A DNA stretch of 64,000 nucleotides. It comes from Haliotis rufescens. Taxonomy: Eukaryota. The DNA is taken from NCBI RefSeq assembly GCF_023055435.1, contig NW_025963824.1, positions 21,204,001 to 21,268,000 on the forward strand, in the 5' to 3' direction. Position numbers and translations under genes: made by a program. Below, piece after piece: positions 1,293-61,955 of the stretch. The notes under the pieces were generated by a model. It was given only the letters and a program-made list of their open reading frames with translations, was not told the origin of the DNA and made no database searches. Numbering within the stretch: position 1 is the first letter of the stretch; each line of letters starts with the position of its first letter.

Positions 1293-1343
1293 GCCATCTG
1301 AGGAGGAGGTGTTTGAGCGGTGTGGTGGACGCACAGCCCATAA
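1293..1343 (+). CDS. GPATCH4: G patch domain-containing protein 4, penultimate coding exon (upstream exons lie outside the window)
   Basis: ttgcAG acceptor at 1291-1292 and GTAAGT donor at 1344. Encodes PSEEEVFERCGGRTAH(K), which splices in frame to GARHGLKLNGKL, the conserved GPATCH4 motif. Confidence 0.88.
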
Positions 1344-2825
1344 GTAAGTACATCACTCTGCTGGTGCAACATCAGGGACACACAGACCACAAGTAAGAAC
1401 ATCACTCTGCTGGTGCAACATCAGGGACACACAGCCCACAAGTAAGTACATCACTTGGCTGGTGCAACATCAGGGACACACAGCCCACAAGTAAGTACAT
1501 GACTTGGCTGGTGCAACATCAGGGACACACAGCCCACAAGTAAGAACATGACTTGGCTGGTGCAACATCAGGGACACACAGCCCACAAGTAAGTACATGA
1601 CTTGGCTGGTGCAACATCAGGGACACACAGCCCACAAGTAAGTACATCACTTGGCTGGTGCAACATCAGGGACACACAGCCCACAAGTAAGAACATGACT
1701 TGGCTGGTGCAACATCAGGGACACACAGCCCACAAGTAAGTTCATCACTTGGCTGGTGCAACATCAGGGACACACAGCCCACAAGTAAGAACATCACTCT
1801 GCTGGTGCAACATCAGGGACACACAGCCCACAAGTGAGTACATGACTTGGCTGGTGCAACATCAGGGACACACAGCCCACAAGTAAGAACATCACTCTGC
1901 TGGTGCAACATCAGGGACACACAGCCCACAAGTAAGAACATCACTCTGCTGGTGCAACATCAGGTCCACACAGACCACAATTAAGAACATCACTCTGCTG
2001 GTGCAACATCAGGGACACACAGCCCACAAGTAAGAACATCACTCTGCTGGTGCAACATCAGGGACACACAGCCCACAAGTAAGAACATCACTCTGCTGGT
2101 GCAACATCAGGGACACACAGCCCACAAGTAAGTACATGACTTGGCTGGTGCAACATCAGGGACACACAGCCCACAAGTAAGAACATCACTCTGCTTGTGC
2201 AACATCAGGGACACACAGCCCACAAGTAAGAACATCACTCTGCTGGTGCAACATCAGGGACACACAGCCCACAAGTAAGAACATCACTCTGCTGGTGCAA
2301 CATCATGGACACACAGCCCACAAGTAAGAACATCACTCTGCTGGTGCAACATCAGGGACACACAGCCCACAAGTGAGTACATGACTTGGCTGGTGCAACA
2401 TCAGGGACACACAGCCCACAAGTAAGAACATCACTCTGCTGGTGCAACATCAGGGACACACAGCCCACAAGTAAGTACATGACTTGGCTGGTGCAACATC
2501 AGGGACACACAGCCCACAAGTAAGTACATCACTTGGCTGGTGCAACATCAGGGACACACAGCCCACAAGTAAGTACATGACTTGGCTGGTGCAACATCAG
2601 GGACACACATCCCACAAGTGAGTACATGACTTGGCTGGTGCAACATCAGGGACACACATCCCACAAGTGAGTACATGACTTGGCTGGTGCAACATCAGGG
2701 ACACACAGCCCACAAGTGAGTACATGACTTGGCTGGTGCAACATCAGGGACACACAGCCCACAAGTAAGAACATGACTTGGCTTGTGCAACATCAGGGAC
2801 ACACAGCCCACAAGTAAGTACATCA
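1327..2825 (+). repeat. 49-bp minisatellite (~30 copies) whose unit spans the GPATCH4 exon/intron donor
   Basis: Unit ggacacacagcccacaa|gtaag(a/t)acatcactctgctggtgcaacatcag; period 49 (ggac at 1327 and 1376). Confidence 0.95.
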
Positions 2826-3344
2826 GTAAGAACCCTTTGTGCAGTACTATCTATCGATTTCATACAAAACTGAAGACAGCTGGTGTATTTCTGTTTACAT
2901 TAAACCTTTTGATCAAATACAAAACTCTGTCACATAACGAATGCAAGTCTGATGTTGCACCATAACCACTTCTTTGTCTATCTTCCTAACAACTAATAAT
3001 GATGAATAGAGGAATATGCCTGTTTATCTGTACATGAACAAATATCTGCTGGAAAGTATCTTTAAATCCAGGGGCAAGGGTGGCTCAGACATCTAAAGTG
3101 TTGCCACTCGCTGTGCACTGTTGCATCTTTAAGGCACGACAAAATCCCATGATCATTGGTTTGAATCCCTGATCTTCCCTGAAAAGGGTTCCTGGTTTGT
3201 CAGCACCATGCTAATGGGTTTCACCAAAGTGCTTCATATCTAAGACATGCATCACTGACATGCTGGTGTTATTTGACTGAAATGATGTTCAAAGCGACGT
3301 TAATCTCCAGTCAAGCAGTCATTAATCTCTTCATCATTACAAAG

Positions 3345-3565
3345 TTCCCCCAGGGAATTCCTGGGTTTTCCAGGTTAGAGTAGGTGACCAAGTGGATCAG
3401 GTGGTCAGACTCGGGTACTTGGTTGATAACATGTCATCGTACCCCCATGGGATGGATGAATGCTCTCAAAATCACTGAACTTTCAGATCCAGACTTGATT
3501 ATTTACAGGCTGATATCATCTAGCTGAAAAACTGCCGAACGTGGCATTAAAAAAGAAACAAACGT
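3345..3565 (+). mobile_element. Degenerate copy of the non-tRNA SINE-like family (same family as 51176-51424)
   Basis: Shares ggatcaggtggtcagactcg...tccagacttgattatttacag...agctgaaaaactgccga...ttaaa and an (aaac)n tail. Confidence 0.6.
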
Positions 3566-3613
3566 TACAAAGTTGGTGAAGGACCCATTTGAGCATGTAG
3601 GTGTGTGTTACAG

Positions 3614-4394
3614 AGGGGCTCGTCATGGGCTGAAGCTGAACGGGAAGCTGCAGCGGGTCCAGGCTATGGAGGAACAGCTGATGCTGCAGATGAAGGCTGC
3701 GCGACTACCTGAGGCAGCAGGCAACACAGGCCGCCTCCAGGGGCAAGACACAGCACCACAGGAGGGGAGGAAGAAGAACAAACATGTAGGTGAAGAGATT
3801 GAATTGTCATTGGAGGAGAACAGTCAAGGAACTGAGGGTGTTGAGAAGAAGAAGAAGAGGAAGAAGGAGAAGCATATAGAGGGAGAGGTTGAATCACCAT
3901 TGCAAGAGAACAGTAGTGCAGCTGAGAGTGTTGGGAAGAAGAAGAAGAGAAAGAAGGAGAAGCATATAGAGGGAGAGGTTGAATCACCATTGCAAGAGAA
4001 CAGTAGTGCAGCTGAGAGTGTTGGGAAGAAGAAGAAGAGAAAGAAGGAGAAGCATATAGAGGGAGAGGTTGAATCACCATTGCAAGAGAACAGTAGTGCA
4101 GCTGAGAGTGTTGGGAAGAAGAAGAAGAGAAAGAAGGAGAAGCATTTTGACGATGAGATTGAATTGCCATTGCAGGAGAACAGTGGACTGAGTGAGTGTG
4201 ATGAAAGGAAGAGGAGATATCCAGCAGGAGAGACTGGCCCGCCAGTCCACGAGGACAGCCAGAGTGATGGTGAGAGTCCATCCGAGGGGAGGAGGAAGAG
4301 AAAGAAGTGTAAGAAAGTGAAGGAGTTGGAAGGAGAAGAACAATCTTGTGAATCACACCACCCTAAGAAGAAAAAGAAAAAAAGAAAAGACTAA
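3614..4394 (+). CDS. GPATCH4: GPATCH4 last coding exon with Lys/Glu-rich low-complexity tail
   Basis: ttacAG acceptor at 3612-3613. Reads (K)GARHGLKLNGKLQRVQAMEEQL...KKKKKRKD* to TAA at 4394; the poly-lysine tail is typical of this nucleolar family. Confidence 0.88.
3780..4190 (+). repeat. Coding 90-bp (30-aa) tandem repeat inside the GPATCH4 last exon
   Basis: KHIEGEVESPLQENSSAAESVGKKKKRKKE occurs three times almost identically, with diverged flanking copies. Confidence 0.93.
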
Positions 4395-4443
4395 GTTGTG
4401 TCATCTTTGTATTGTACACAAGGAATGTATAAAGCTACAGGCA

Positions 4444-4449
4444 ATTAAA
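4444..4449 (+). promoter_or_regulatory. Candidate polyadenylation signal (ATTAAA) for GPATCH4
   Basis: ATTAAA about 50 nt after the stop codon, followed by T-rich sequence. Confidence 0.45.
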
Positions 4450-4639: not shown

Positions 4640-5179
4640 TCTCTGGAGTGTTGTAGTAGTTCTGTTGTAATATTGTGTTGTCCTCTGCTACATATTATAT
4701 CTCTGGAGTGTTGTAGTAGTTCTGTTGTAATATTGTGTTGTCCTCTGCTACATATTATATCTCTGGAGTGTTGTAGTAGTTCTGTTGTAATATTGTGTTG
4801 TCCTCTGCTACATATTATATCTCTGGAGTGTTGTAGTAGTTCTGTTGTAATATTGTGTTGTCCTCTGCTACATATTATATCTCTGGAGTGTTGTAGTAGT
4901 TCTGTTGTAATATTGTGTTGTCCTCTGCTACATATTATATCTCTGGAGTGTTGTAGTAGTTCTGTTGTAATATTGTGTTGTCCTCTGCTACATATTATAT
5001 CTCTGGAGTGTTGTAGTAGTTCTGTTGTAATATTGTGTTGTCCTCTGCTACATATTATATCTCTGGAGTGTTGTAGTAGTTCTGTTGTAATATTGTGTTG
5101 TCCTCTGCTACATATTATATCTCTGGAGTGTTGTAGTAGTTCTGATGTAATACTGTGTTGTCCTCTGCTACATATTATG
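4640..5179. repeat. 60-bp minisatellite, ~9 near-identical copies
   Basis: ctctggagtgttgtagtagttctgttgtaatattgtgttgtcctctgctacatattatat repeats line for line. Confidence 0.96.
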
Positions 5180-5984: not shown

Positions 5985-7902
5985 AAATACATCAGGCAGA
6001 GCACATCACATACACCAGACACATGGCACCACGTACACCAGACACATGGCACCACATACACCAGACACATGGCACCACATACACCAGACACATGGCACCA
6101 CGTACACCAGACACATGGCACCATGTACACCAGACACAGTACACCACATACACCAGACACGTTGCACCACGTACACCAGACACATGGCACCACATATACC
6201 AGACACAGTACATCACGTACACCAGACACGTGGCACCACGTACACCAGACACAGTACACCACATACACCAGACACATGGCACCACGTACACCAGACACAT
6301 GGCACCACGTACACCAGACACATGGCACCACATACACCAGACACATGGCACCACATACACCAGACACATGGCACCACGTACACCAGACACATGGCACCAT
6401 GTACACCAGACACAGTACACCACATACACCAGACACGTTGCACCACGTACACCAGACACATGGCACCACATATACCAGACACAGTACATCACGTACACCA
6501 GACACGTGGCACCACGTACACCAGACACAGTACACCACATACACCAGACACATGGCACCACGTACACCAGACACATGGCACCACGTACACCAGACACAGT
6601 ACACCACATAAACCAGACACATGGCACCACATACACCAGACACAGTACACCACGTACACCAACACATGGCACCACGTACACCACGTACACCAGACACCAT
6701 GTACACCAGACACATGGCACCACGTACACCAGACACGTGGCACCACGTACACCAGACATAGTACACCACGTACACCAGACACAGTACACCACGTACACTT
6801 GACACGTGGCATCACGTACACCAGACACTTTGCACCACATACACCAGACACAGTACACTAAGTACACCAGACACAGTTACACCACGCACGACCGCCTCCG
6901 TGGTCTAATGGTAGAGCGTCTGCCCGGAGAGCGGAAGGTCCAGGGTTCGATCCCCAGCCGCGTAGTACCAAAAGACACTTAAAGATGGTACTTGTTGTTA
7001 CCCTGTCTGGTGCTCGGCACTAAGGGGCTCAAACAAGGACTGGTCGGCTCGGAGTCAGTATACTGTGTCTGAGTGGGGTATTCATGTTAAACTGCGGCAT
7101 GGTATCTCAGTGTGCTAGCATCAGTCTGAACTAGTACAAGCAGCCACACACACACACATACGCGTGCATGCACATCGCTATATAAGTGCAATAATCTTGG
7201 ACGCGATGTTAAACCCCATTTCACCTCACCTACACCACGTACACCAGACACAATACACCATGTACACCAGACACAGTACACCATGTACACCAGAAACAGT
7301 ACACCACGTACACCAGACAAAGTACACCACGTACACCACGTACACCAGACACAGTACACTACGTACACCAGACACAGTACACCACGTACACCAGACACGT
7401 GACACCACGTACACCAGACACATGGCACCACACACACCAGACACAGTACACCACGTACACCAGACACGTGGCACTATGTACACCAGATACAGTACACAGT
7501 ACACCATGTACACCAGACATGTGGCACCACGTACACCAGACGCAGTACACCACGTACACCAGACACGTGACACCACGTACACCAGACACAGTACACCACA
7601 TACACCAGACAATATACACCATGTACACCAGACACATGGCACCATGTACACCAGACACAGTACACCACGTACACCAGACACAGTACACCACGTACACCAG
7701 ACACGTGGCACAATGAACACCAGACACAGTACACCACATACACCAGACACAGTACACCAGACACGTAGCACCACGTACACCAGACACAGTACACCACGTA
7801 CACCAGACACGTGACACCACGTAGACCAGACACAGTACGCCACGTGCACCAGACATGTGGCACCACGTAGACCAGACACAGTACACCACATACACCAGAC
7901 AG
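5985..7902 (+). repeat. 23-bp satellite, left part (interrupted by a SINE and a LINE)
   Basis: Unit caccacgtacaccagacac(atgg/agta); internal 276-bp (12-mer) duplication (gttgcaccac at 6161 and 6437). Confidence 0.95.
6887..7230 (+). mobile_element. tRNA-derived SINE (central domain resembles the Meta domain), full length
   Basis: A-box-like tggtctaatgg, B box ggttcgatccc, central taccaaaagac...gatggtacttgttg...gctcggcactaagggg, (cacct)n tail; apparent TSD tacaccacg. Two more copies occur in the window. Confidence 0.88.
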
Positions 7903-13810: not shown

Positions 13811-14704
13811 CACCAGACAGGACACCAGACACAGTACACCACGTACACCAGACACGTGGCACCACGTACACCAGACACATGGCACCACGTACACCAGACA
13901 CAGTACACCAGACACAGTACACAACATACACCAGACATGTGGCACCACGTACACCAGACACAGTACACCACGTACACCAAATACAGTACACCACGTACAC
14001 AAGACAAAGTACACCACGTACACCAGACACGTGGCACCACGTACATTAGACACAGTACACCACGTACACCAGACACGTGGCACCACGTACACCAGACACA
14101 GTACACCACATACACCAGACAAAGTACACCATTTAGACCAGACACGTGCACCAGACATGTGGCACCACGTACACCAGACACAGTACACCACATACATCAG
14201 ACAGTACACCAGACACAGTACACCACATACACCAGACAAAGTACACCCAATACACCAGACACTTGGCACCACGTACACCAGACAGATGGCACCACGTACA
14301 CCAGACACAGTACACCACGTACACCAGACTCGTGGCACCATGTACACCAGACACAGTACACCACATACACCAGACACATCGCACCACGTACACCCGACAC
14401 ATTGCACCACGTAAACCAGACACAGTACACCACGTACACCAGATACGTGGCACAACGTACACCAGACACATGGCACCACATACACCAGACACATGGCACC
14501 ATGTACACCAGACACAGTACACCACATACACCAGACACATGGCACCACATACACCAGACACATGGCACCACGTACACCAGACACAGTACACCACATACTC
14601 CAGACACATGGCACCACGTACACTAGACACAGTACACCACGTACACCAAACACAGTACACCACGTACACCAGACACATTGCACAACGTACACCTGACACA
14701 GTAC
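13811..14704 (+). repeat. 23-bp satellite, right part (continuation after the LINE)
   Basis: Same unit as 5985-7902. Confidence 0.95.
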
Positions 14705-14759
14705 CCCAGTTTAATGTATTAAAAGGCAGATGACATAATTGTTTTTTTTCAAATGTTAA

Positions 14760-22744: not shown

Positions 22745-25420
22745 TATGCCCTGTGTCTAGTGTATGTGGAGTGTCTGGTATATGTGCTGTGTCTGATGTA
22801 TGTGGTGTGCTATGTCTGATGTATGTGCTGTACTGTGTCTGATGAATGTGGTGTGCTGTGTCTAGTGTATGTGGTGTACTGTGTCTGATGAATGTGGTGT
22901 GCTGTGTCTAGTGTATGTGGTGTACTGTGTCTGATGTATGTGGTGTGCTGTGTCTGGTGAATGTGGTGTGCTATGTCTGATGTATGTGGTGTGCTGTGTC
23001 TGATGAATGTGGTGTGCTGTGTCTGATGTATGTGGTGTGCTGTGTCAGATGTATGTGGTGTGCTATGTCTGGTGTATGTGGTGTGCTGTGCCTGGTGTAT
23101 GTGGTGTGCTGTGTCTGATGTATGCGGTGTGCTGTGTCTGATGTATGTGGTGTGCTGTGTCTGATGTATGTGGTGTGCTATGTCTGATGTATGTGGTGTG
23201 CTATGTCTGATGTATGTGGTGTGCTGTGTCTGATGTATGCGGTGTGCTGTGTCTGGTGAACATGGTGTGCTGTGTCTGATGTATGTGGTATGCTGTGTCT
23301 AGTGTATGAGGTGTGCTGTGTCTGATGTATGAAGTGTGCTGTGTCTGATGTATGTGGTGTTCTGTGTCTGGTGAATGTGGTGTGCTGTGTCTGATGTATG
23401 TGGTATGCTGTGTCTAGTGTATGAGGTGTGCTGTGTCTGATGTATGTGGTGTGCTATGTCTGATGTATGTGTTGTGCTGTGTCTGATGTAGGTGGTGTGC
23501 TGTGTCAGATGTATGTGGTGTGCTGTGTCTGATGTATGTGGTGTTCTGTGTCTGGTATATATGGTGTGCTGTGTCTGATGTATGTGGTGTGCTGTGTCTG
23601 ATGTATGCGGTGTGCTGTGTTTGGTGTATGTGCTGTACTGTGTCTGATGAATGTGGTGTGCTGTGTTTGGTGTATGTGCTGTACTGTGTCTGATGAATGT
23701 GGTGTGCTGTGTCTGATGTATGTGGTGTACTGTGTCTGATGAATGTGGTGTGCTGTGTCTAGTGTATGTGGTGTACTGTGTCTGATGTATGTGGTATGCT
23801 GTGTCTAGTGTATGAGGTGTGCTGTGTCTGATGTATGTAGTGTGCTGTGCCTGGTGTATGTGGTGTGCAATGGCTGATGTATGCGGTGTGCTGTGTCTGA
23901 TGTATGCGATGTGCTGTGTCTGATGTATGTGGTGTGCTGTGTCTGATGTATGCGGTGTGCTGTGTCTGGTGAACGTGGTGTGCTGTGTCTGATGTATGTG
24001 GTATGCTGTGTCTAGTGTATGAGGTGTGCTGTGTCTGATGTATGAAGTGTGCTGTGTCTGATGTATGTGGTGTTCTGTGTCTAGTGTATGAGGTGTGCTG
24101 TGTCTGATGTATGTGGTGTGCTATGTCTGATGTATGTGGTGTGCTGTGTATGATGTATGTGGTGTGCTGTGTCAGATGTATGTTGTGTGCTGTGTCTGAT
24201 GTATGTGGTGTGTTGTGTCTGATGTATGCGGTGTGCTGTGTCTGGTGAACGTGGTGTGCTGTGTCTGATGTATGTGGTGTGCTGTGTCTGATGTATGCGG
24301 TGTGCTGTGTCTGGTGAACGTGGTGTGCAGTGTCTGATGTATGTGGTATGCTGTGTCTAGTGTATGAGGTGCGCTGTGTCTGATGTATGAAGTGTGCTGT
24401 GTCTGATGTATGTGGTGTTCTGTGTCTAGTGTATGAGGTGTGCTGTGTCTGATGTATGTGGTGTGCAATGGCTGATGTATGCGGTGTGCTGTGTCTGATG
24501 TAGGCGATGTGCTGTGTCTGATGTATGTGGTGTGCTATGTCTGATGTATGTGGTGTGCTGTGTCTGATGTATGCGGTGTGCTGTGTCTGGTGAACGTGGT
24601 GTGCTGTGTCTGATGTATGTGGTATGCTGTGTCTAGTGTATGAGGTGTGCTGTGTCTGATGTATGAAGTGTGCTGTGTCTGATGTATGTGGTGTTCTGTG
24701 TCTAGTGTATGAGGTGTGCTGTGTCTGATGTATGTGGTGTGCTATGTCTGATGTATGTGGTGTGCTGTGTCTGATGTATGTGGTGTGCTGTGTCTGATGT
24801 ATGTGGTGTGCTGTGTCTAGTGTATGAGGTGTGCTGTGTCTGATGTATGGGGGTGTGCTATGTCTGATGTATGTGGTGTGCTGTGTCTGATGTATGTGGT
24901 GTTCTGTGTCAGATGTATGTTGTGTGCTGTGTCTGATGTATGTGGTGTTCTGTGTCTGATATATATGGTGTGCTGTGTCTGATGTATGTGGTGTGCTGTG
25001 TCTGATGTATGCGGTGTGCTGTGTTTGGTGTATGTGCTGTACTGTGTCTGATGAATGTGGTGTGCTGTGTTTGGTGTATGTGCTGTACTGTGTCTGATGA
25101 ATGTGGTGTGCTGTGTCTGATGTATGCGGTGTGCTGTGTTTGGTGTATGTGCTGTACTGTGTCTGATGTATGCGGTGTGCTGTGTTCGGTTTATGTGCTG
25201 TACTGTGTCTGATGAATGTGGTGTGCTGTGTCTGATGTATGCGGTGTGCTGTGTCTGATGTATGCGGTGTGCTTAGTCAGATGTATGCGGTGGGCTGTGT
25301 CTGGTGTATGCGGTGTGCTGTGTCTGATATATGCGGTGTGCTGTGTACACCAGACACAACGCACCTGATACACCAGACACAGGGCACACCACATACATCA
25401 GACATAACACCACATATCAC
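22745..25420 (-). repeat. 23-bp satellite related to 5985-14704 but inverted; orientation flips back at ~25345
   Basis: Unit tgtgtctgatgtatgtggtgtgc is the reverse complement of gcacaccacatacatcagacaca. Confidence 0.93.
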
Positions 25421-30968: not shown

Positions 30969-31290
30969 TAGTGTACCCCCTTGAGAAAAACCTTCGAGCT
31001 GCAAGGATTATCTGTCTCCAGTGAATTAACTTTGTGGGTTTCTGGGCCTTGGCGAGGGGCTTTCAACATTAATTCAAGAGGGACAGATAACCGGTAACAA
31101 TATCCTAGAAAGCTTACAATTATTGAATAGTACTTCTGCTTTCAATGACTGTCTTTTACGTGAACTATCAATAAAGAAAAATGTTGTTGTCGGTGATTCC
31201 GTAATTCAGATAGACAACCCACTTAAATCATTGAAATCAACTCTGCCGCTTTTTGCAATATATTTGCCAACGCCAAATTCGGTTCGGTTT

Positions 31291-33570: not shown

Positions 33571-33670
33571 ATGGTTTTCGAATCTCTTGTTGTGGAACTT
33601 ATTAACAAGTTCGTTGGAGATTATGTGGAGAATTTGGATGCATCGCAACTCAAGTTGGGCATTTGGGGCG
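33571..33670 (+). CDS. VPS13: VPS13A/C-type intermembrane lipid transfer protein, coding exon 1 (chorein-N)
   Basis: [33 protein letters not shown](G); GTAAGT donor; 100 nt. Confidence 0.95.
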
Positions 33671-34877: not shown

Positions 34878-35340
34878 CTGTGGTCCTGTGGATCAACTGT
34901 GTCACATGTGGTGCTGTGGATCAACTGTGTCACATGTGGTGCTGTGGATCAACTGTGTCACACATCATTGCACATGGTTCTGTGGATCAACTTTTTCACA
35001 TGTGGTGCTGTGGATCAACTGTGTCACACTTGGTTCTGTGGATCAACTGTGTCACACATGGTTCTGTGGATCAACTGTGTCACACATGGTTCTGTTGATC
35101 AACTGTGTTACATGTGGTGCTGTGGATCAACTGTGTCACACATGGTGCTGTGGATCAACTGTCACACATGGTTCTGTGGATCAACTGTGTTACATGTGGT
35201 GCTGTGGATCAACTGTGTCACACATAGTTCCGTAGATCAACTGTGTCACACATGGTTCTGTGGATCAACTGTGTCACACATGGTTCTGTGGATCAACTGT
35301 GTTACATGTGGTGCTGTGGATCAGCTGTGTCGCATGTGGT
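34878..35340. repeat. 28-bp minisatellite in VPS13 intron 1
   Basis: ctgtggatcaactgtgtcacacatggtt, period 28. Confidence 0.92.
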
Positions 35341-36480
35341 GCATAGTAGCACTAGCTTGTCTGCAGGAGCAGTCTTCACAGTGCTACATGTGTCACCTGT
35401 GTGATGATTTGCCGCCCAGTTATGGCTGAATGGTTGATGAAGCTGGTTCCTATGTGTGTGGAAGGCAGGGATGGCTTGCTGAGTGCAGCAGCTGTTGAAT
35501 CATTTCCTCCCACCCCCCCTGCGGCTGACTCAGCAGACATGTGACATTGTTGTGAGCAGCACAGACAGATGGTTGTAGGTTGTGTAGCATTGCCATTGTC
35601 ATGTGCTGCACTTCAAGCCATGCATGACCACTGGACAATGAAACAACTCGCACATACATTTTCCTTGTCAGGACAGATCAATTTCTTTCAATGCATTTTT
35701 TATCAAATATGTCTTTGATTGGAAAATTTCATTTCAAACACATCAAAATATCAGACTTAAAATATTTGAAAAACAATGAATTACTTGGAGTTATTCAAAC
35801 ACCTGCTGTAGATAACGTCTCCGAAGAGATGGTATTGGCGTTTCGATGAACATTAAAATGGCTGGGAACTTTGTTTTGTGCAATTCTTGTTTGCAGCACA
35901 CCCACTGCGCATAGAAGTTGATTTCCATCTTGCCATGGCATTGCTAATGCATATTTACAGTTTAACAAAGCTGTTCTTATGAGCACCTGGTAGTTAAACA
36001 ATTATTGTGTGCTGTTCACATTAAAAAATGTGCATGAGTATCATGTTCCAAACAAGCTCGGAAACATCCAGATTGTGCACCGTGTATGAACTTGCACGTG
36101 CAAGTTGTAGATCACCACCTTAAAGTCGAGGAGAGGGAAGGAGAGAAAATTTGTAAGTTTTAATATCCGAGTTGTCTCATTCTTATTTTCGTTAACATTG
36201 GTGTCATTAGACAAACTGACCCTGGCTAGCTGGTTAGTGTCACATTCTATCCCTCAAACATGCTATGTCATGCATAAGTCTGAGCTGTCAACTACTGACA
36301 GGCACAGTGTCTAGTGATATCACAGCAGGTCATCATGGTCATAATGATATGTCCATGTCGCAGATTGTGTAATCACATCTGTGAGATGGTGGTTCAAGGT
36401 TACAAGTCCATCCATCCTGCTGGTCTGTGCATGTGAGGGGGGTGTGACGGTTATCAACATGATAACGTCACTTGCAATAT

Positions 36481-38782: not shown

Positions 38783-41700
38783 TTGGCTGTAGTCTGCAGT
38801 GTGTATGTAGTTGTACAGACATGGTGTACTGGCTGTAGCCTACAGTGTATGTGTAGTTGTACAGCCATGGTGTACTGGCTGTAGTCTGCAGTGTGTATGT
38901 AGTTGTACAGACATGGTGTACTGGCTGTAGCCTACAGTGTATGTGTAGTTGTACAGACATGGTGTACTGGCTGTAGTCTGCAGTGTGTATGTAGTTGTAC
39001 AGACATGGTGTACTGGCTGTAGCCTACAGTGTATGTGTAGTTGTACAGCCATGGTGTACTGGCTGTAGTCTGCAGTGTGTATGTGGTTGTACAGCCATGG
39101 TGTACTGGCTGTAGCCTGCAGTGTGTATGTAGTTGTACAGACATGGTGTACTGGCTGTAGTCTGCAGTGTGTATGTAGTTGTACAGCCATGGTGTACTGG
39201 CTGTAGCCTGCAGTGTATGTGTACTTGTACAGACATGGTGTACTGGCTGTAGCCTGCAGTGTGTATGTGGTTGTACAGCAATGGTGTACTGGCTGTAGCC
39301 TGCAGTGTGTATGTAGTTGTACAGCCATGGTGTACTGGCTGTAGCCTGCAGTGTGTATGTAGTTGTACAGCCATGGTGTACTGGCTGTAGTCTGCAGTGT
39401 GTATGTGGTTGTACAGCCATGGTGTACTGGCTGTAGTCTGCAGTGTGTATGTAGTTGTACAGCCATGGTGTACTGGCTGTAGCCTGCAGTGTGTATGTAG
39501 TTGTACAGCCATGGTGTACTGGCTGTAGCCTGCAGTGTATAAGTAGTTGTACAGACAAGGTGTACTGGCTGTAGCCTGCAGTGTGTATGTAGTTGTACAG
39601 ACAAGGTGTACTGGCTGTAGCCTGCAGTGTGTATGTAGTTGTACAGCCATGGTGTACTGGCTGTAGCCTGCAGTGTGTAAGTTGTTGTACAGACATGGTG
39701 TACTGGCTGTAGCCTGCAGTGTGTATGTGGTTGTACAGCCATGGTGTACTGGCTGTAGCCTGCAGTGTGTATGTAGTTGTACAGACAAGGTGTACTGGCT
39801 GTAGCCTGCAGTGTGTATGTAGTTGTACAGCCATGGTGTACTGGCTGTAGCCTGCAGTGTGTAAGTAGTTGTACAGACATGGTGTACTGGCTGTAGCCTG
39901 CAGTGTGTATGTAGTTGTACAGCCATGGTGTACTGGCTGTAGTCTGCAATGTGTAAGTAGTTGTACAGCCATGGTGTACTGGCTGTAGCCTGCAGTGTGT
40001 AAGTAGTTGTACAGACATGGTGTACTGGCTGTAGCCTGCAGTGTGTATGTAGTTGTACAGACATGGTGTACTGGCTGTAGCCTGCAGTGTGTATGTGGTT
40101 GTACAGCCATGGTGTACTGGCTGTAGCCTGCAGTGTGTATGTAGTTGTACAGCCATGGTGTACTGGCTGTAGCCTGCAGTGTGTATGTAGTTGTACAGCC
40201 ATGGTGTACTGGCTGTAGCCTGCAGTGTGTATGTGGTTGTACAGCCATGGTGTACTGGCTGTAGTCTGCAGTGTTTATGTAGTTGTACAGCCATGGTGTA
40301 CTGGCTGTAGCCTGCAGTGTGTATGTAGTTGTACAGCCATGGTGTACTGGCTGTAGCCTGCAGTGTATAAGTAGTTGTACAGACATGGTGTACTGGCTGT
40401 AGCCTGCAGTGTGTATGTAGTTGTACAGACAAGGTGTACTGGCTGTAGCCTGCAGTGTGTATGTAGTTGTACAGCCATGGTGTACTGGCTGTAGCCTGCA
40501 GTGTGTAAGTAGTTGTACAGACATGGTGTACTGGCTGTAGCCTGCAGTGTGTATGTGGTTGTACAGCCATGGTGTACTGGCTGTAGCCTGCAGTGTGTAT
40601 GTAGTTGTACAGACAAGGTGTACTGGCTGTAGCCTGCAGTGTGTATGTAGTTGTACAGCAATGGTGTACTGGCTGTAGCCTGCAGTGTATAAGTAGTTGT
40701 ACAGACATGGTGTACTGGCTGTAGCCTGCAGTGTGTATGTAGTTGTACAGACATGGTGTACTGGCTGTAGCCTGCAGTGTATAAGTAGTTGTACAGACAT
40801 GGTGTACTGGCTGTAGCCTGCAGTGTGTATGTAGTTGTACAGCCATGGTGTACTGGCTGTAGTCTGCAATGTGTAAGTAGTTGTACAGCCATGGTGTACT
40901 GGCTGTAGCCTGCAGTGTATGTGTAGTTGTACAGCCATGGTGTACTGGCTGTAGTCTGCAGTGTGTATGTAGTTGTACAGCCATGGTGTACTGGCTGTAG
41001 TCTGCAGTGTGTATGTAGTTGTACAGACATGGTGTACTGGCTGTAGTCTGCAGTGTGTAAGTAGTTGTACAGACATGGTGTACTGGCTGTGGCCTGCAGT
41101 GTGTAAGTAGTTGTACAGACATGGTGTACTGGCTGTAGCCTGCAGTGTGTAAGTAGTTGTACAGCCATGGTGTACTGGCTGTAGCCTGCAGTGTGTATGT
41201 AGTTGTACAGCCATGGTGTACTGGCTGTAGCCTGCAGTGTATAAGTAGTTGTACAGCCATGGTGCACTGGCTGTAGCCTGCAGTGTGTATGTAGTTGTAC
41301 AGCCATGGTGTACTGGCTGTAGTCTGCAGTGTGTAAGTAGTTGTACAGACATGGTGTACTGGCTGTAGTCTGCAGTGTGTATGTGGTTGTACAGCCATGG
41401 TGTACTGGCTGTAGCCTGCAGTGTGTATGTAGTTGTACAGACATGGTGTACTGGCTGTAGTCTGCAGTGTGTATGTAGTTGTACAGCCATGGTGTACTGG
41501 CTGTAGCCTGCAGTGTATGTGTAGTTGTACAGACATGGTGTACTGGCTGTAGCCTGCAGTGTGTATGTGGTTGTACAGCCATGGTGTACTGGCTGTAGCC
41601 TGCAGTGTTATGTTGTTGTACAGCTATGGTGTACTGGCTGTAGCCTGCAGTGTGTATGTAGTTGTACAGACATAGTGTACTGGCTGTAGCCTGCAGTGTA

Positions 41701-44700
41701 TGTGTACTTGTACAGACATGGTGTACTGGCTGTAGCCTGCAGTGTGTGGTTGTACAGCCATGGTGTACTGGCTGTAGCCTGCAGTGTGTATGTAGTTGTA
41801 CAGACATGGTGTACTGGCTGTAGCCTGCAGTGTATAAGTAGTTGTACAGACATGGTGTACTGGCTGTAGCCTGCAGTGTGTATGTAGTTGTACAGCCATG
41901 GTGTACTGGCTGTAGTCTGCAATGTGTAAGTAGTTGTACAGCCATGGTGTACTGGCTGTAGCCTGCAGTGTATGTGTAGTTGTACAGCCATGGTGTACTG
42001 GCTGTAGTCTGCAGTGTGTATGTAGTTGTACAGCCATGGTGTACTGGCTGTAGTCTGCAGTGTGTATGTAGTTGTACAGACATGGTGTACTGGCTGTAGT
42101 CTGCAGTGTGTAAGTAGTTGTACAGACATGGTGTACTGGCTGTAGCCTGCAGTGTGTATGTAGTTGTACAGCCATGGTGTACTGGCTGTAGTCTGCAATG
42201 TGTAAGTAGTTGTACAGCCATGGTGTACTGGCTGTAGCCTGCAGTGTGTAAGTAGTTGTACAGACATGGTGTACTGGCTGTAGCCTGCAGTGTGTATGTA
42301 GTTGTACAGACATGGTGTACTGGCTGTAGTCTGCAATGTGTAAGTAGTTGTACAGCCATGGTGTACTGGCTGTAGCCTGCAGTGTATGTGTAGTTGTACA
42401 GCCATGGTGTACTGGCTGTAGTCTGCAGTGTGTATGTAGTTGTACAGCCATGGTGTACTGGCTGTAGTCTGCAGTGTGTATGTAGTTGTACAGACATGGT
42501 GTACTGGCTGTAGTCTGCAGTGTGTAAGTAGTTGTACAGACATGGTGTACTGGCTGTAGCCTGCAGTGTGTATGTAGTTGTACAGCCATGGTGTACTGGC
42601 TGTAGTCTGCAATGTGTAAGTAGTTGTACAGCCATGGTGTACTGGCTGTAGCCTGCAGTGTGTAAGTAGTTGTACAGACATGGTGTACTGGCTGTAGCCT
42701 GCAGTGTGTATGTAGTTGTACAGACATGGTGTACTGGCTGTAGCCTGCAGTGTGTATGTGGTTGTACAGCCATGGTGTACTGGCTGTAGCCTGCAGTGTG
42801 TATGTAGTTGTACAGCCATGGTGTACTGGCTGTAGCCTGCAGTGTGTATGTAGTTGTACAGCCATGGTGTACTGGCTGTAGTCTGCAGTGTGTATGTAGT
42901 TGTACAGACATGGTGTACTGGCTGTAGTCTGCAGTGTGTAAGTAGTTGTACAGACATGGTGTACTGGCTGTAGCCTGCAGTGTGTATGTAGTTGTACAGC
43001 CATGGTGTACTGGCTGTAGTCTGCAATGTGTAAGTAGTTGTACAGCCATGGTGTACTGGCTGTAGCCTGCAGTGTGTAAGTAGTTGTACAGACATGGTGT
43101 ACTGGCTGTAGCCTGCAGTGTGTATGTAGTTGTACAGACATGGTGTACTGGCTGTAGTCTGCAATGTGTAAGTAGTTGTACAGCCATGGTGTACTGGCTG
43201 TAGCCTGCAGTGTATGTGTAGTTGTACAGCCATGGTGTACTGGCTGTAGTCTGCAGTGTGTATGTAGTTGTACAGCCATGGTGTACTGGCTGTAGTCTGC
43301 AGTGTGTATGTAGTTGTACAGACATGGTGTACTGGCTGTAGTCTGCAGTGTGTAAGTAGTTGTACAGACATGGTGTACTGGCTGTAGCCTGCAGTGTGTA
43401 TGTAGTTGTACAGCCATGGTGTACTGGCTGTAGTCTGCAATGTGTAAGTAGTTGTACAGCCATGGTGTACTGGCTGTAGCCTGCAGTGTGTAAGTAGTTG
43501 TACAGACATGGTGTACTGGCTGTAGCCTGCAGTGTGTATGTAGTTGTACAGACATGGTGTACTGGCTGTAGCCTGCAGTGTGTATGTGGTTGTACAGCCA
43601 TGGTGTACTGGCTGTAGCCTGCAGTGTGTATGTAGTTGTACAGCCATGGTGTACTGGCTGTAGCCTGCAGTGTGTATGTAGTTGTACAGCCATGGTGTAC
43701 TGGCTGTAGTCTGCAGTGTGTATGTGGTTGTACAGCCATGGTGTACTGGCTGTAGTCTGCAGTGTTTATGTAGTTGTACAGCCATGGTGTACTGGCTGTA
43801 GCCTGCAGTGTGTATGTAGTTGTACAGCCATGGTGTACTGGCTGTAGCCTGCAGTGTATAAGTAGTTGTACAGACATGGTGTACTGGCTGTAGCCTGCAG
43901 TGTGTATGTAGTTGTACAGACAAGGTGTACTGGCTGTAGCCTGCAGTGTGTATGTAGTTGTACAGCCATGGTGTACTGGCTGTAGCCTGCAGTGTGTAAG
44001 TAGTTGTACAGACATGGTGTACTGGCTGTAGCCTGCAGTGTGTATGTGGTTGTACAGCCATGGTGTACTGGCTGTAGCCTGCAGTGTGTATGTAGTTGTA
44101 CAGACAAGGTGTACTGGCTGTAGCCTGCAGTGTGTATGTAGTTGTACAGCAATGGTGTACTGGCTGTAGCCTGCAGTGTATAAGTAGTTGTACAGACATG
44201 GTGTACTGGCTGTAGCCTGCAGTGTGTATGTAGTTGTACAGACATGGTGTACTGGCTGTAGCCTGCAGTGTATAAGTAGTTGTACAGACATGGTGTACTG
44301 GCTGTAGCCTGCAGTGTGTATGTAGTTGTACAGCCATGGTGTACTGGCTGTAGTCTGCAATGTGTAAGTAGTTGTACAGCCATGGTGTACTGGCTGTAGC
44401 CTGCAGTGTATGTGTAGTTGTACAGCCATGGTGTACTGGCTGTAGCCTGCAGTGTGTAAGTGGTTGTACAGACATGGTGTACTGGCTGTAGCCTGCGGTG
44501 TGTATGTGGTTGTACAGCCATGGTGTACTGGCTGTAGCCTGCAGTGTGTAAGTAGTTGTACAGCCATGGTGTACTGGCTGTAGTCTGCAGTGTGTATGTA
44601 GTTGTACAGCCATGGTGTACTGGCTGTAGCCTGCAGTGTGTAAGTAGTTGTACAGACATGGTGTACTGGCTGTAGTCTGCAGTGTGTATGTAGTTGTACA

Positions 44701-45030
44701 GCCATGGTGTACTGGCTGTAGTCTGCAGTGTGTATGTAGTTGTACAGCCATGGTGTACTGGCTGTAGCCTGCAGTGTGTATGTAGTTGTACAGCCATGGT
44801 GTACTGGCTGTAGTCTGCAGTGTGTATGTAGTTGTACAGACATGGTGTACTGGTTGTAGCCTGCAGTGTGTATGTAGTTGTACAGACATGGTGTACTGGT
44901 TGTAGCCTGCAGTGTGTAAGTAGTTGTACAGCCATGGTGTACTGGCTGTAGCCTGCAGTGTGTATGTGGTTGTACAGCCATGGTGTACTGGCTGTAGCCT
45001 GCAGTGTATGTGTGGTTGTACAGATGGCTG
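38783..45030. repeat. 46-bp satellite, ~135 copies, with higher-order structure
   Basis: gtacagccatggtgtactggctgtagcctgcagtgtgtatgtagtt; source of the 392-1568 aa pseudo-ORFs. Confidence 0.97.
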
Positions 45031-46124: not shown

Positions 46125-48240
46125 TGATGGACTACACAATGATCTACCAGAACATCTAGAGAGCGACACAATATTCAAAAGGACACCTAGGGGCTACACA
46201 ATGATCTTCCAGACATCTAGAGAGCAACACAGTGATCGATAGGACACCTAGGGGCTACACAGTGATCTACAGGACACCTAGGGGCTACACAGTGATCTAC
46301 CAGAACATCTAGAGAGTGATGCAATATTCTATAGGACACCTAGGGGCTACACAGTTATCTATAGGACACCTAGCTGCTACACAGTGATCTATAGGACTCC
46401 TAGGGGCTACACAGTGATCTACCAGAACATCTAGAGAGCGACACAATATTCAAAAGAACACCTAGGGGCTACACAATGATCTTCCAGACATCTAGAGAGC
46501 AACACAGTGATCGATAGGACACCTAGGGCTACACAGTGATCTACAGGACACCTAGGGGCTACACAGTGATCTATAGGACTCCTAGGGGCTACACAGTGAT
46601 CTACCAGAACATCTAGAGAGTGACACAATATTCTATAGGACACCTAGGGGCTACACAGTTATCTATAGGACACCTAGCTGCTACACAGTGATCTATGGGA
46701 CACCTAGGGCTACACAGTGATCTACCGGAACATCTAGAGAGCGACACAATATTCAAAAGAACACCTAGGGGCTACACAATGATCTTCCAGACGTCTAGAG
46801 AGCAACACAGTGATCGATAGGACACCTAGGGGCTACACAGTGATCTACAGGACACCTAGGGCTACACAGTGATCTATAGGACACCTAGGGGCTACACAGT
46901 GATCTACCAGAACATCTAGAGAGTGACGCAATATTCTATAGGACACCTAGGGGCTACACAGTTATCTATAGGACACCTAGCTGCTACACAGTGATCTATG
47001 GGACACCTAGGGCTACACAGTGATCTACCAGAACATCTAGAGAGCGACACAATATTCAAAAGAACACCTAGGGGCTACACAATGATCTTCCAGACATCTA
47101 GAGAGCAACACAGTGATCGATAGGACACCTAGGGGCTACACAGTGATCTACAGGACACCTAGGGCTACACAGTGATCTATAGGACACCTAGGGGTTACAC
47201 AGTGATCTACAGGACACCTAGAGTTACACAGTGATCTACAGGACACCTAGGGTTACATAGTGGTCTATAGGACACCTAGGGGTTACACAGTGATCTACAG
47301 GACACCTAGGGTTACATAGTGATCTTCAGGACACCTAGGGTTACATAGTGGTCTATAGGACACCTAGGGTTACACAGTGATCTACAGGACACCTAGGGTT
47401 ACATAGTGATCTACAGGACACCTAGGGTTACATAGTGGTCTATAGGATACCTAGGGTTACACAGTGGTCTATAGGACACCTGGGGGCTACACAGTGATCT
47501 ACAGGACACCTAGTGTTACATAGTGATCTACAGGACACCTAGGGTTACATAGTGGTCTATAGGACACCTAGGGGTTACACAGTGATCTACAGGACACCTA
47601 GGGTTACATAGTGATCTACAGGACACCTAGGGTTACATAGTGATCTACAGGACACCTAGGGTTACATAGTGATCTACAGGACACCTAGGGTTACATAGTG
47701 ATCTACAGGACACCTAGGGTAACACAGTGGTCTATAGGACACCTGGGGGTTACACAGTGATCTACAGGACACCTAGGGTTACATAGTGATCTACAGGACA
47801 CCTAGGGTTACATAGTGATATACAGGACACCTAGGGTTACATAGTGATCTACAGGACACCTAGGGGTTACACAGTGATCTACAGGACACCTAGGGTTACA
47901 TAGTGATCTACAGGACACCTAGGGTTACATAGTGGTCTATAGGACACCTAGGGGTAACACAGTGATCTGTAGGACACCTAGGGGTAACACAGTGATCTAC
48001 AGGACACCTAGGGTTACATAGTGGTCTATAGGACACCTAGGTTACACAGTGGTCTATAGGACACCTAGGTTACACAGTGGTCTACAGGACACCTAGGGTT
48101 ACATAGTGATCTACAAGACACCTAGGGTTACATAGTGGTCTATAGGACACCTAGGGTTACATAGTGGTCTATAGGACACCTGGGGGTTACACAGTGATCT
48201 ACAGGACACCTAGGGTTATTTAGTGGTCTATAGGACACAT
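46125..48240. repeat. 30-31-bp satellite; ~300-bp higher-order repeat on the left, simple monomers on the right
   Basis: ggacacctaggg(g)(c/t)tacacagtgatctata; marker gagcgacacaatattcaaaa at 46161, 46436, 46739, 47042. Confidence 0.95.
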
Positions 48241-52649: not shown

Positions 52650-52693
52650 GAGATGCGGTGCTGCAGAACCTGGACCTAAAGCAGAGTGCCTTG
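52650..52693 (+). CDS. VPS13: VPS13 coding exon 2
   Basis: ttgcAG / GTATG; (G)DAVLQNLDLKQSAL; phase-compatible with exons 1 and 3. Confidence 0.93.
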
Positions 52694-52982: not shown

Positions 52983-53500
52983 CTCAGTAGTTGTGTCTGA
53001 GTTGGCCTTGGTCAGCTGGTGAACTGAAAACTGATGCAGGGTCAATAGAATCCCTCCTATTCAGTAGCTGTGTCTGAGTTGGCCTTGGTCAGCTGTTAAA
53101 CCGTAGACTGATACAGGGTTGATAGAATCCCTCCTATTCAGTAGCTGTGTCTGAGTTGGCCTTAGTCAGCTGTTAAACCGTAGACTGATACAGGGTTGAT
53201 AGAATCCCTCCTATTCAGTAGTTGTGTCTGAGTTGGCCTTAGTCAGCTGTTAAACCGTAGACTGATACAGGGTTGATAGAATCCCTCCTATTCAGTAGCT
53301 GTGTCTGAGTTGGCCTTAGTCAGCTGTTAAACCATAGACTGATACAGGGTTGATAGAATCCCTCCTATTCAGTAGTTGTGTCTGAGTTGGCCTTAGTCAG
53401 CTGTTAAACCATAGACTGATACAGGGTTGATAGAATCCCTCCTATTCAGTAGCTGTGTCTGAGTTGGCCTTGGTCAGCTGGTGAACTGTAGACTGATACA
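52983..53500. repeat. 77-bp minisatellite (~6.7 copies) ending ~15 nt before the VPS13 exon 3 acceptor
   Basis: tcagtagctgtgtctgagttggcc...gatagaatccctcctat; period 77 (53061, 53138). Confidence 0.94.
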
Positions 53501-53516: not shown

Positions 53517-53559
53517 GATGATCTGGACCTGCCTGTAAAGATCAAAGCTGGTCATGTTG
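53517..53559 (+). CDS. VPS13: VPS13 coding exon 3
   Basis: tttcAG / GTGAGT; DDLDLPVKIKAGHV(G). Confidence 0.93.
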
Positions 53560-56196: not shown

Positions 56197-56292
56197 GAAA
56201 GTTGACATTAAAAATTCCCTGGAAGAATTTGTACACAGAGCCAGTGATAGCTCAGTTGGATGGAATCTATGCATTGGCAGTTCCCAATGCAG
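56197..56292 (+). CDS. VPS13: VPS13 coding exon 4
   Basis: ttccAG / GTGAGT; [31 protein letters not shown]. Confidence 0.95.
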
Positions 56293-56330
56293 GTGAGTGA
56301 GACTGAGGTCATTTAGCCATTTAAGTGTTA

Positions 56331-58649: not shown

Positions 58650-58699
58650 GTCACGGATCAGAGTTCTACATATATATATATATATATATATGCATTGGC

Positions 58700-59059
58700 A
58701 TGTGTGTCTAGTGGTAGAGCATCCACACGGAGAGCGGAAGGTCTGGGGTTCGATCCCCGGCCGCGTCATACCAAAAGACGTTAAAAGATGGTACTTGTTG
58801 TTACCCAATCTGGCGCTCAGCATTAAGGGGCTGAAACAAGGACTGGTCGGCTCGGAGTCAGTATACTGTGTCTGAGTGGGGTATTCATGTTATACTACGG
58901 CATGGTATCTCAGTGTGCTAGCACTATAAATCGGACTAGTACAAGCAGCCACACACACACACACACACATACGTGCATTCACGTCTCTATATGAGTCCAA
59001 TAATCTTGGACGCAACATTAAACCCCATTTCACCTCGCCTCACTTCACCTCACATCACC
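58700..59059 (+). mobile_element. tRNA-derived SINE, third copy
   Basis: gtctagtggtagagc...ggttcgatcccc...(cacct)n; matches 6887-7230. Confidence 0.88.
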
Positions 59060-59077
59060 CATTACCCAAAATAGGTG

Positions 59078-59599
59078 ATAGCACAACACAGAAAAGGTCA
59101 CACAGTTGTAGTACTATTGTTGTGTTGTAGGCATCAAATACAACACAGAAAAGATCACACAGTTGTATTACTATTGTTGTTTTGTAGGCATCAAGTACAA
59201 CACAGAAAAGATCACACAGTTGTATTACTATTGTTGTGTTGTAGGCATCAAGCACAACACAGAAAAGGTCACACAGTTGTAGTACTATTGTTGTGTTGTA
59301 GGCATCAGGTACAACACAGAAAAGGTCACACAGTTGTAGTACTATTGTTGTATTGTAGGCATCAAGTACAACACAGAAAAGGTCACACAGTTGTAGTACT
59401 ATTGTTGTGTTGTAGGCATCAAGTACAACACAGAAAAGGTCACACAGTTGTAGTACTATTGTTGTGTTGTAGGCATCAAGTACAACACAGAAAAGGTCAC
59501 ACAGTTGTAGTACTATTGTTGTGTTGTAGGCATCAGGTACAACACAGAAAAGGTCACACAGTTGTAGTACTATTGTTGTGTTGTAGGCATCAAGTACAA
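59078..59599 (+). repeat. 57-bp minisatellite (9 copies) whose unit spans the VPS13 intron 4/exon 5 acceptor
   Basis: cacagaaaaggtcacacagttgtagtactattgttgtgttgtAG|gcatcaagtacaa; the last unit runs into exon 5. Confidence 0.95.
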
Positions 59600-59688
59600 T
59601 GCGGAGAAAGAGGAGAAGGCGAAGCAGGAGGCGAAGCAAAAGAAGTTGAAGCAGATTGAGGAGAGGAAGAAGGCTGAGGCTGACAAGG
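59587..59688 (+). CDS. VPS13: VPS13 coding exon 5
   Basis: ttgtAG / GTGAGT; (G)IKYNAEKEEKAKQEAKQKKLKQIEERKKAEADK. Confidence 0.92.
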
Positions 59689-59943: not shown

Positions 59944-60113
59944 ACAAACCTAAGGAAGAAAAGCCAGACACGTTTGTGGAGAAAATGGCAACTCAGGTGA
60001 TTAAGAACCTGCAGATAAAGGTGAACAACATCCACGTGAGATATGAGGACCGTTTTACAAATCCCAAGCGTCCGTTTGCCATCGGCATCACTCTCCAGGA
60101 ACTGCTGTTTCAG
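59944..60113 (+). CDS. VPS13: VPS13 coding exon 6
   Basis: tttcAG / GTAGCT; DTFVEKMATQVIKNLQIKVNNIHVRYED...PFAIGITLQELLFQ. Confidence 0.95.
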
Positions 60114-60339
60114 GTAGCTATATAAGATAGTGTTCATTGTGCAGATTGATAGTCCTACAGTTATACTTATCCTGTATTGTCACACATTGAAATGACTTTC
60201 AGATATATTATTATACATTGAGATTGTCAATGAACATCCCTGTTTTGGGTAGAGTTATGTATACGGTGTAGTGTGTCCTGAAAAACCTGTATCAAACAGT
60301 ACTGGTGAATACAAGTGACGTTAGAACATAGTTGTGTCA

Positions 60340-61222
60340 AAGACAGTGCAGACTCGCCTCAGCTGATTCCATCAGGATAAGTCCATACTGCCCTCAGCTG
60401 GTTCCATCAGGATCAGTGCAGACTGCCTTCAGCTGGTTCCATCAGGATCAGTGCAGACTGCCTTCAGATGGTTCCATCAGAATCAGGTTCATCTGGTTCC
60501 ACCAGGATCAGTGCACTGACCCTGACACAACTGTCTGACAGATGTCTACACTGACCCTGACACAACTATCTGACAGATGTCTGTTCCAACCCTGACAGAA
60601 CTATCTGACAGATGTATACACTGACCCTGACACAACTATCTGACATATGTCTACACTGACCCTGACACAACTATCTGACATATGTCTGCACTGACCCTGA
60701 CACAACTATCTGACAGATGTCTACACTGACCCTGACACAACTATCTGACAGATGTATACACTGACCCTGACACAACTATCTGACAGATGTCTACACTGAC
60801 CCTGACACAGCTATCTGACATATGTCTACACTGACCCTGACACAACTATCTGACATATGTATACACTGACCCTGACACAACTATCTGACAGATGTCTGCT
60901 CTGATCCTGACAACTATCTGACATATGTCTGCTCTGATCCTGACACAACTATCTGACAGATGTCTGCACTGACCCTGACAACTATCTGACAGATGTATAC
61001 ACTGACCCTGACACAACTATCTGACAGATGTCTGCACTGACCCTGACACAACTATCTGACAGATGTCTACACTGACCCTGACACAACTATCTGACAGATG
61101 TATACACTGACCCTGACACAACTATCTGACAGATGTCTACACTGACCCTGACACAACTATCTGACAGATGTCTGCTCTGATCCTGACAACTATCTGACAT
61201 ATGTCTGCTCTGATCCTGACAA
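60340..61222. repeat. Two abutting ~35-bp minisatellites
   Basis: cagtgcagactgccttcagctggttccatcaggat (60340-60513), then cactgaccctgacacaactatctgacagatgtcta (60514-61222). Confidence 0.92.
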
Positions 61223-61603
61223 CCCGGGGCAACAATAGTGATGAGACACAACACACACGGAAGACTAGTGTTGTTGTACAAGACCAGAACCAGTTGAGAT
61301 ATTATACTGTCTGAAATTGCCTGTTGTTGTTCAAAGGTTTGGATATGTATTGATAAAATTTGGAAAAATGATGATATATCAGTGAAAGGGACATTCATCT
61401 TATGTCCCTCTTTCCCAGAAGATTATTTTTACTTATAAAATTGAATGAGTAGTTGCCATGTTTGTATTGTTGTACTAATTTTACAAGGACACATAATTTT
61501 GCAAGTCGGCTATATTACTGATACTATTGTAGTACATTTTTGAACTGTGCATCTGTATATCATTACTTCACAAGTTCTAACGTGTTATGTTGGGTTTCTT
61601 CAG

Positions 61604-61663
61604 ACCACAGATGAGTCTTGGCAGCCATGTGTCATCAAGGATGCTGTGACCCAAATCTTCAAG
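61604..61663 (+). CDS. VPS13: VPS13 coding exon 7
   Basis: cttcAG / GTATG; TTDESWQPCVIKDAVTQIFK. Confidence 0.92.
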
Positions 61664-61955
61664 GTATGAGGGGATGAGGAGGACATGTATGTCAGTACTG
61701 GGGGGATGGGGAGGACATGTATGTGTATGTCAGTACTGGGGGGATTGGGAGGACATATGTGTGTCAGTACTGGGGTTAGGGGAAGGACATGTATGTCAGT
61801 ACTGGGGGGAAGGGTAGGACATGTGTGTCAGTACTGGGGTTAGGGGGAGGACATGTATGTCAGTACTGGGGGGAAGGGTAGGACATGTGTGTCAGTACTG
61901 GGGTTAGGGGGAGGACATGTATGTCAGTACTGCAGGAGGAGGACATGTCAGTAGT
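61664..61955 (+). repeat. G-rich ~32-bp minisatellite starting at the VPS13 exon 7 donor
   Basis: gtatgtcagtactggggg...ggaggacat units fill most of intron 7. Confidence 0.88.

Follow-up and report, generated by a model that had tools for sequence, protein, structure and literature searches.

We analysed a 64,000-nucleotide stretch of the Haliotis rufescens genome (contig NW_025963824.1, positions 21,204,001 to 21,268,000 of assembly GCF_023055435.1; here called the window), in which tandem repeat arrays lie at exon-intron boundaries of a GPATCH4-like and a VPS13A-like gene. The arrays are of local origin and, in a sample of introns from VPS13 and dynein genes, their frequency at exon edges is about double that predicted for random placement within genes, with an asymmetry between donors and acceptors. 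We consider it probable that these are locally copied minisatellites whose roughly twofold enrichment at edges results from events after the birth of the arrays, and not from seeding linked to splicing. An earlier note on the window had proposed that arrays are generated preferentially at exon edges by a process coupled to transcription or splicing, and that they supply raw material for the gain of introns or micro-exons. The local derivation of the units and the preference for exon edges were borne out by this work; the splicing-linked seeding and the gain of introns or micro-exons were not.

Arrays at exon edges in the window

Two of the arrays, which like the exons of both genes lie on the forward strand and were delimited with Tandem Repeats Finder (TRF), contain a splice site. 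The first (1327..2825, 30.6 copies of a 49-bp unit) spans the donor of the penultimate coding exon of the GPATCH4-like gene (1293..1343, ending in PSEEEVFERCGGRTAHK, assigned by protein P0312). Its GT is at 1344 and, judging from the annotated proteins, is probably used as a splice site. The unit consists of 17 exon and 32 intron bases and includes the donor. The right end of the array is ragged, and 30 of 30 copies are set apart from the coding copy by the same two changes, a pattern of concerted evolution from which the genic copy is excluded. The second array (59083..59599, 9.1 copies of a 57-bp unit), whose start the earlier note had placed at 59078, spans the acceptor between intron 4 and exon 5 of VPS13; its unit is made of 44 intron and 13 exon bases, acceptor included, and the array junction has a 4-nt ACAA microhomology. 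These two arrays are mirage minisatellites, a known kind of repeat.

The other arrays on which the earlier note relied are all present, as are its 11 coding exons (TRF and protein alignments), but they are not mirages. The 77-bp array of VPS13 (52984..53500, 6.7 copies) stops, much as described, 16 nt upstream of exon 3 (53517..53559) and does not contain the acceptor itself. The G-rich 32-bp array (61670..61956, about 9 copies) is indeed near a donor and occupies most of a 362-nt intron, but it lacks the donor because in the TRF call it starts at 61670, 6 nt downstream of the end of exon 7 (61604..61663), and not at 61664. The 90-bp array (3832..4184, or 3767-4184 in a wider call; 3.9 copies) is an in-frame coding repeat in the last exon of the GPATCH4-like gene (3614..4394). 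It encodes a 30-residue acidic, lysine-rich unit, has two units more than the proteins labelled H. cracherodii, H. rubra and H. asinina, and lies inside the exon, so it does not count as an edge case.

The earlier note had left out six intronic arrays of the two genes that are not at edges. Three are deep in VPS13 intron 1 (28 bp, 34881..35392; 46 bp, 136 copies, 38784..45023; 29 bp, 46180..48238), two unrelated 35-bp arrays are in the middle of intron 6 (60344..61221, with starts at 60344 and 60514), and a 50-bp array is in the middle of intron 9 (62539..64000, continuing 180 nt beyond the end of the window). With these included, edge arrays make up 4 of 10 intronic arrays of the window, compared with 0.65 expected for gene-wide placement (P=0.003) and 1.9 for placement within the same intron (P=0.07).

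In a search of the assembly the 49-, 57- and 77-bp units had, among the matches listed, their own locus as the sole match, and the 32-bp unit had one further G-rich array at 71-76% identity; these counts are lower bounds. Across all DNA fetched for this work, 245 of 267 arrays were without a relative in the sample, as expected of locally derived units.

Arrays are also prominent elsewhere in the two genes. Directly upstream of the window, a 4.3-kb GPATCH4 intron (L160:1023-5290) is almost entirely array sequence: a donor-spanning 34-mer of 114 copies adjoins an acceptor-spanning 30-mer of 14 copies. The next GPATCH4 intron has an acceptor-spanning 40-mer of 18 copies, in which the AG is often lost in distant copies. 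About 250 nt past the GPATCH4 stop codon there is a likely very young 60-bp array (4640-5178, 9 copies, 99% identity). Array sequence makes up 49% of the VPS13 gene, whose intron 82 contains a 19.3-kb array of about 377 copies of one 51-bp unit (154986-174278, counted from window base 1).

Enrichment of arrays at exon edges

The test set comprised 805 introns, 85 of VPS13 and 720 (those annotated with confidence, of 760) of 16 dynein genes; it thus represents two gene families and is not a random draw. Eighteen dynein heavy-chain loci were located, and parts of 16 were used after annotation with a spliced aligner. In a check on VPS13, three invertebrate homologs led the aligner to the right position at 77-81 of 81-83 sites per side, and the chimpanzee protein did so at 74-75 of 86. 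Arrays with a period of at least 10, at least 3 copies and a length of at least 100 bp were considered. The 204 arrays touching the test introns were reduced to 194 by removing multi-locus families and arrays with fewer than 3 intronic bases, and to 190 by removing four embedded in transposon-like DNA. The transposon mask was obtained by self-comparison of about 1.4 Mb, therefore low-copy families were missed. Each array was collapsed to a single unit before its placement was tested, and was called an edge array if it spanned a splice site or was at most 20 nt from one. The null models placed arrays gene-wide or within the same intron, each optionally weighted by GC content and with transposon-like DNA excluded. 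Arrays planted as controls showed that the pipeline is unbiased at seed lengths between the period p and p+3 and conservative at p+10; the figures given are for p+2, at which the deficit at acceptors is weaker than at p+10.

Edge arrays numbered 78 of 190, compared with 36.5 expected gene-wide, 59.2 within introns (P=4e-4) and 67.5 within introns with GC weighting (P=0.036). The excess over random placement in genes is thus about twofold; it is real, and modest under fair null models. The dyneins alone gave the same pattern (60 versus 43.7 within introns), the 12 best-aligned genes gave 67 versus 45 (transposon-like DNA included), and in VPS13 alone the difference was not significant (18 versus 15.5 within introns, P=0.21).

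The two ends of the intron behaved differently. Twenty-seven arrays spanned a donor, with expectations of 11.7 gene-wide, 15.9 gene-wide with GC weighting (P=0.004) and 19.3 within introns; the difference from the GC-weighted within-intron expectation (23.7) was not significant. Acceptors were spanned by 13 arrays, compared with 11.7 expected gene-wide, 18.6 within introns and 22.7 with GC weighting, the last being a deficit (P=0.01). The ratio of 27:13 differs from parity (P=0.04), and does so also when two-copy cases are included (31:14, P=0.016). Among arrays that stop short of the splice site, 14 were within 20 nt of a donor (6.6 expected gene-wide, 10.7 within introns) and 24 within 20 nt of an acceptor AG (6.6 and 10.5, P<1e-4). 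Taken together, the arrays spanning a splice site, with units of 21-98 bp, are at chance level for placement within introns (40 versus 38.0); they include the array at 59083, are 40 of the 194, and enclose 40 of the 1,610 splice sites sampled, 13 of them acceptors.

Birth and later fate of the arrays

Tandem duplications of two copies, which we used as a proxy for the seeds of arrays, were not enriched at edges: 14 of 99 were found there, compared with 18.1 expected gene-wide and 16.8 within introns, and their edge share differs from that of expanded arrays (Fisher P=2e-6). Only one spanned an acceptor, where five were expected. Array junctions had no bias to AG/GT (3/29 versus 2.8; 1/15 versus 1.8). 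These results, together with the chance-level total of spanning arrays, speak against seeding by a process linked to splicing. The R-loop type of link suggested in the earlier note found no support either: runs of G showed no strand bias of the kind expected for G-quadruplexes or R-loops, GGG and CCC each occurring in 67 of 204 units. Base composition probably has an influence. In the 93 arrays lying over 50 nt away from any splice site, seeds of 0.45-0.55 GC were over-represented 1.6-2.3-fold, and those below 0.35 occurred at about 0.55 of the expected frequency; GC weighting is what raises the within-intron expectation from 59.2 to 67.5.

Where an array spans a splice site, little of the intron remains once the array is collapsed: the residual length has a mean rank of 0.31 within the gene (n=40, P=2e-4), and a rank of 0.5 would be expected under random and edge seeding alike. 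Two residues, of 37 and 49 nt, are shorter than any of the 631 introns without arrays (minimum 80 nt), so in these introns the array now provides the intron length; they are intron 33 of dynein C223 (L068-L077; 1.7 kb) and intron 7 of C2 (L150-L159; 3.7 kb), and the position of one of the two is common to a paralog. A partial unit of at least 6 nt was found at the end of about 80% of 98 clean arrays, as compared with about 10% of planted arrays, while the flanks of array ends are mostly random-like and the junctions sharp. The pipeline itself generated neither the pile-up before the AG nor short residues or ragged ends from planted arrays. The short residues, the introns below the minimum length and the partial-unit ends point to deletion of flanking DNA after expansion. 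Decayed terminal copies account for few of the array ends, and the supply of microhomology near acceptors, considered as a cause of the pile-up, is just 1.07-1.14-fold.

The course of events that we favour would begin with tandem duplications of 20-100 bp, born at roughly random positions by slippage or microhomology repair. GC-richer seeds, exon ends among them, would be more prone to expand, and the unstable arrays would then shed flanking intron DNA. We propose that array ends creep to the splice signals because deletions that remove the signal or the exon are purged. Arrays anchored in an exon would be harder to lose, which may be the cause of the remaining edge boost. Finally, selection would be stronger against extra acceptors than against extra donors, because oriented scanning favours the first donor, whereas an AG located upstream competes; the view that such AGs compete more strongly than GTs located downstream is suggested by 3' scanning. 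In a toy model erosion accounted for the pile-up and the short residues, and the closest fit to the data was obtained by combining modest erosion with purging at acceptors and a 1.8-fold edge boost.

Several observations weigh against this reading. Erosion alone left about 15 donor-spanning arrays in the toy model, compared with the 27 observed, therefore the extra edge boost was required. GC content explains part of the donor excess only (27 versus 15.9), and a residual donor-side excess of about 1.4-1.7-fold is partly unexplained. The survival of exon-anchored arrays is our inference and is not backed by array age: no greater age is seen for spanning arrays, whose identity is +2.2 +/- 1.4 points with period controlled. 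Among edge arrays, array length does not predict the rank of the residual intron. As a proxy for seeds the two-copy class is imperfect, with a shorter period, lower GC content and few events. Units with more G than C on the sense strand outnumber the opposite kind (115 versus 63 arrays), which leaves room for a link to transcription. Several classes of arrays were tested without multiple correction; of the results, just two are robust, the total at edges and the accumulation of array ends ahead of the AG.

Alternative explanations

The alternative that survives best, possible but in our judgment doubtful, is in essence the one put forward in the earlier note, that arrays are born or expand more readily at exon edges owing to a lesion coupled to transcription or splicing (polymerase pausing, R-loops or nucleosome boundaries being the candidates), most strongly at donors. 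It would account for the survival of the edge excess in the within-intron null and, marginally, under GC weighting, for donor-spanning arrays exceeding the gene-wide expectations of 11.7-15.9, and for the boost of about 1.8-fold required by the toy model; the higher density of arrays in VPS13 (0.57/kb) than in unannotated flanking DNA (0.21/kb) and the presence of four splice-spanning arrays in four introns of GPATCH4 are also in its favour. However, two-copy duplications are not enriched at edges, the junctions have no AG/GT bias and GGG equals CCC on the sense strand. A pure edge boost fitted the totals in the toy model, but it left both the short residues (rank 0.48) and the donor/acceptor asymmetry unexplained. 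In its strongest form, in which exon edges are genuine expansion hot spots, the 5' splice site most of all, and copies of the splice junctions of an intron come to take the place of the whole intron, we find the idea slightly harder still to accept, and the same doubt applies to the 4.3-kb GPATCH4 intron, with its donor array abutting an acceptor array, as a possible example of such replacement.

It is less likely that chance suffices, that is, that little intron length is left after removal of arrays and transposons, GC-rich seeds expand, and no process after birth is required. The collapsed VPS13 introns are mostly 80-450 nt long, and the figures for spanning arrays within introns and for VPS13 alone agree with this explanation. 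It does not predict the pile-up before the AG (24 versus 9.8-10.5), the residual rank of 0.31 or the ragged ends, and the planted arrays exclude the pipeline as the source of these patterns.

We think it very improbable that the arrays were brought near exons by transposons or are dispersed satellites. The window does contain a 23-bp family with relatives on many contigs, but spanning units carry exon sequence of the host gene itself, and for spanning arrays this exon content refutes a dispersed origin. The single-locus units, the scarcity of shared units in the sample and the low number of arrays in transposon-like DNA (4 of 194) are further arguments against it. An assembly artefact is the least credible explanation, for although long near-perfect arrays are hard to assemble and copy numbers may be wrong, the copies differ among themselves, and the existence of the 57-mer array is established by contigs of runs X15 (organism C) and X5 (organism B), which show raised depth or a tandem joint.

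Splicing at the arrays and gain of introns

The 57-mer array contains eight decoy acceptors equal in strength to the real one, and use of the nearest would add an in-frame stop. In contigs of three of three presumed-RNA runs, from three studies, exon 4 is joined to 59587, the last in a row of nine acceptors that look identical; the same contigs, which drop rare forms, contain the join of exons 5 and 6. All 14 of the 14 other annotated VPS13 isoforms are without an insertion at this acceptor. These data suggest normal splicing at the one site checked, beside which rare use of decoys may occur. In the test set the decoy dinucleotide is kept in the consensus of 27/27 donor arrays and 12/13 acceptor arrays, decoy scores are near those of the real sites, and over the 27 donor arrays 26 of 669 exonic bases differ between consensus and genic copy. 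The reading frame gave no signal, 11 of 40 spanning units being multiples of 3.

The proposed supply of introns and micro-exons was not seen in this material. None of the 805 introns had a single array spanning both of its ends, and spanning arrays were not commoner at paralog-unique intron positions (16/435) than at others (16/285). Four alternative VPS13 exons (the candidate in intron 38 and exons 56, 60 and 61) are all outside arrays. Ready-made in-frame micro-exons were not enriched, 2 of 44 spanning arrays passing a loose screen; the coordinates of two GPATCH4 acceptors used here and for the junction counts were shifted by one base. The candidate in intron 38 (98244 from window base 1) is a putative 9-nt micro-exon (RLL) in unique sequence, which 6 of the 7 isoforms annotated for this species include.

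Genes and other repeats of the window

The 11 coding exons are the final two of the GPATCH4-like gene and exons 1-9 of the VPS13A-like gene. Both genes match, letter for letter, proteins labelled Haliotis rufescens (P0312 for GPATCH4-like, P0028/P0147 for VPS13A-like), and in an exact spliced alignment P0147 falls into 86 exons across 147 kb. A Pfam search of the last GPATCH4 exon found no match, its identity comes from the protein match instead. The VPS13 exons not located above are exons 1 (33571..33670), 2 (52650..52693), 4 (56197..56292), 5 (59587..59688), 6 (59944..60113), 8 (62026..62106) and 9 (62303..62357).

Between the genes there are LINE, Tc1 and integrase fragments and the dispersed 23-bp repeat family, which occupies 6007-7901, 13822-14708 and 22751-25410 (arrays at 6007, 7231, 13822 and 22751) in both orientations, is interleaved with LINE and Tc1 fragments, and has relatives of 70-78% identity on many contigs. 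Two copies of an element that is SINE-like in appearance, with a tRNA-like head and a (TTCACCTC)n tail, are at about 31290-31620 and 58690-59060, the second ending about 20 nt ahead of the 57-mer array.

Comparison with known systems

The structure of these arrays was known before; what the count adds is the twofold edge excess, the donor/acceptor asymmetry and the pile-up before the AG, which make the abalone a source of natural experiments with decoy splice sites. The 40 decoy cases in 17 sampled genes offer tests of 5' and 3' site choice and of selection on intron turnover. Should the donor excess that remains prove mutational in origin, splicing and germline repeat expansion would be linked.

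The closest counterparts are the mirage minisatellites of amphioxus, described, in the portions of PMC3087553 and PMC3902484 available to us, for Adh3, the globins BflGb6 and BflGb9, troponin C and PGBD5. They are tandem copies of the exon-intron boundary at either exon end, with units of 10-160 bp; decoy GT or AG are kept, splicing is normal and the boundary copy stays outside homogenisation. The abalone spanning arrays likewise repeat the boundary, keep the decoys and exclude the boundary copy. They differ in having a mollusc host, in that 805 introns were counted against null models, and in that arrays stopping short of the acceptor are included. The amphioxus work concerned single genes, called the mechanism unclear and proposed intron gain as a model; no genome-scale count of an exon-edge preference of such repeats was apparent in the parts of the literature our search reached. 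The raw structure is also that of a proposed route of intron gain, the tandem duplication of a proto-splice site (Rogers 1989, cited in PMC3087553), but in the 805 introns we found no array spanning both ends of an intron and no tie to paralog-unique positions.

In humans, variable number of tandem repeats (VNTR) loci at splice donors are listed, in the accessible part of PMC1557585, for F7 IVS7 (37 bp), an interferon-inducible gene (Turri 1995), CBS IVS13, lamin B2 (100 bp) and PDGFA (81 bp). According to the same text the authentic donor of F7 wins by 5'-to-3' scanning, and 3' scanning is called widely accepted. As in the abalone donor arrays, the exon-intron boundary lies within the first unit. 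All the human loci given in that list are on the donor side and scattered, whereas in the abalone sample 40 of 1,610 splice sites lie inside arrays and 13 of these are acceptors.

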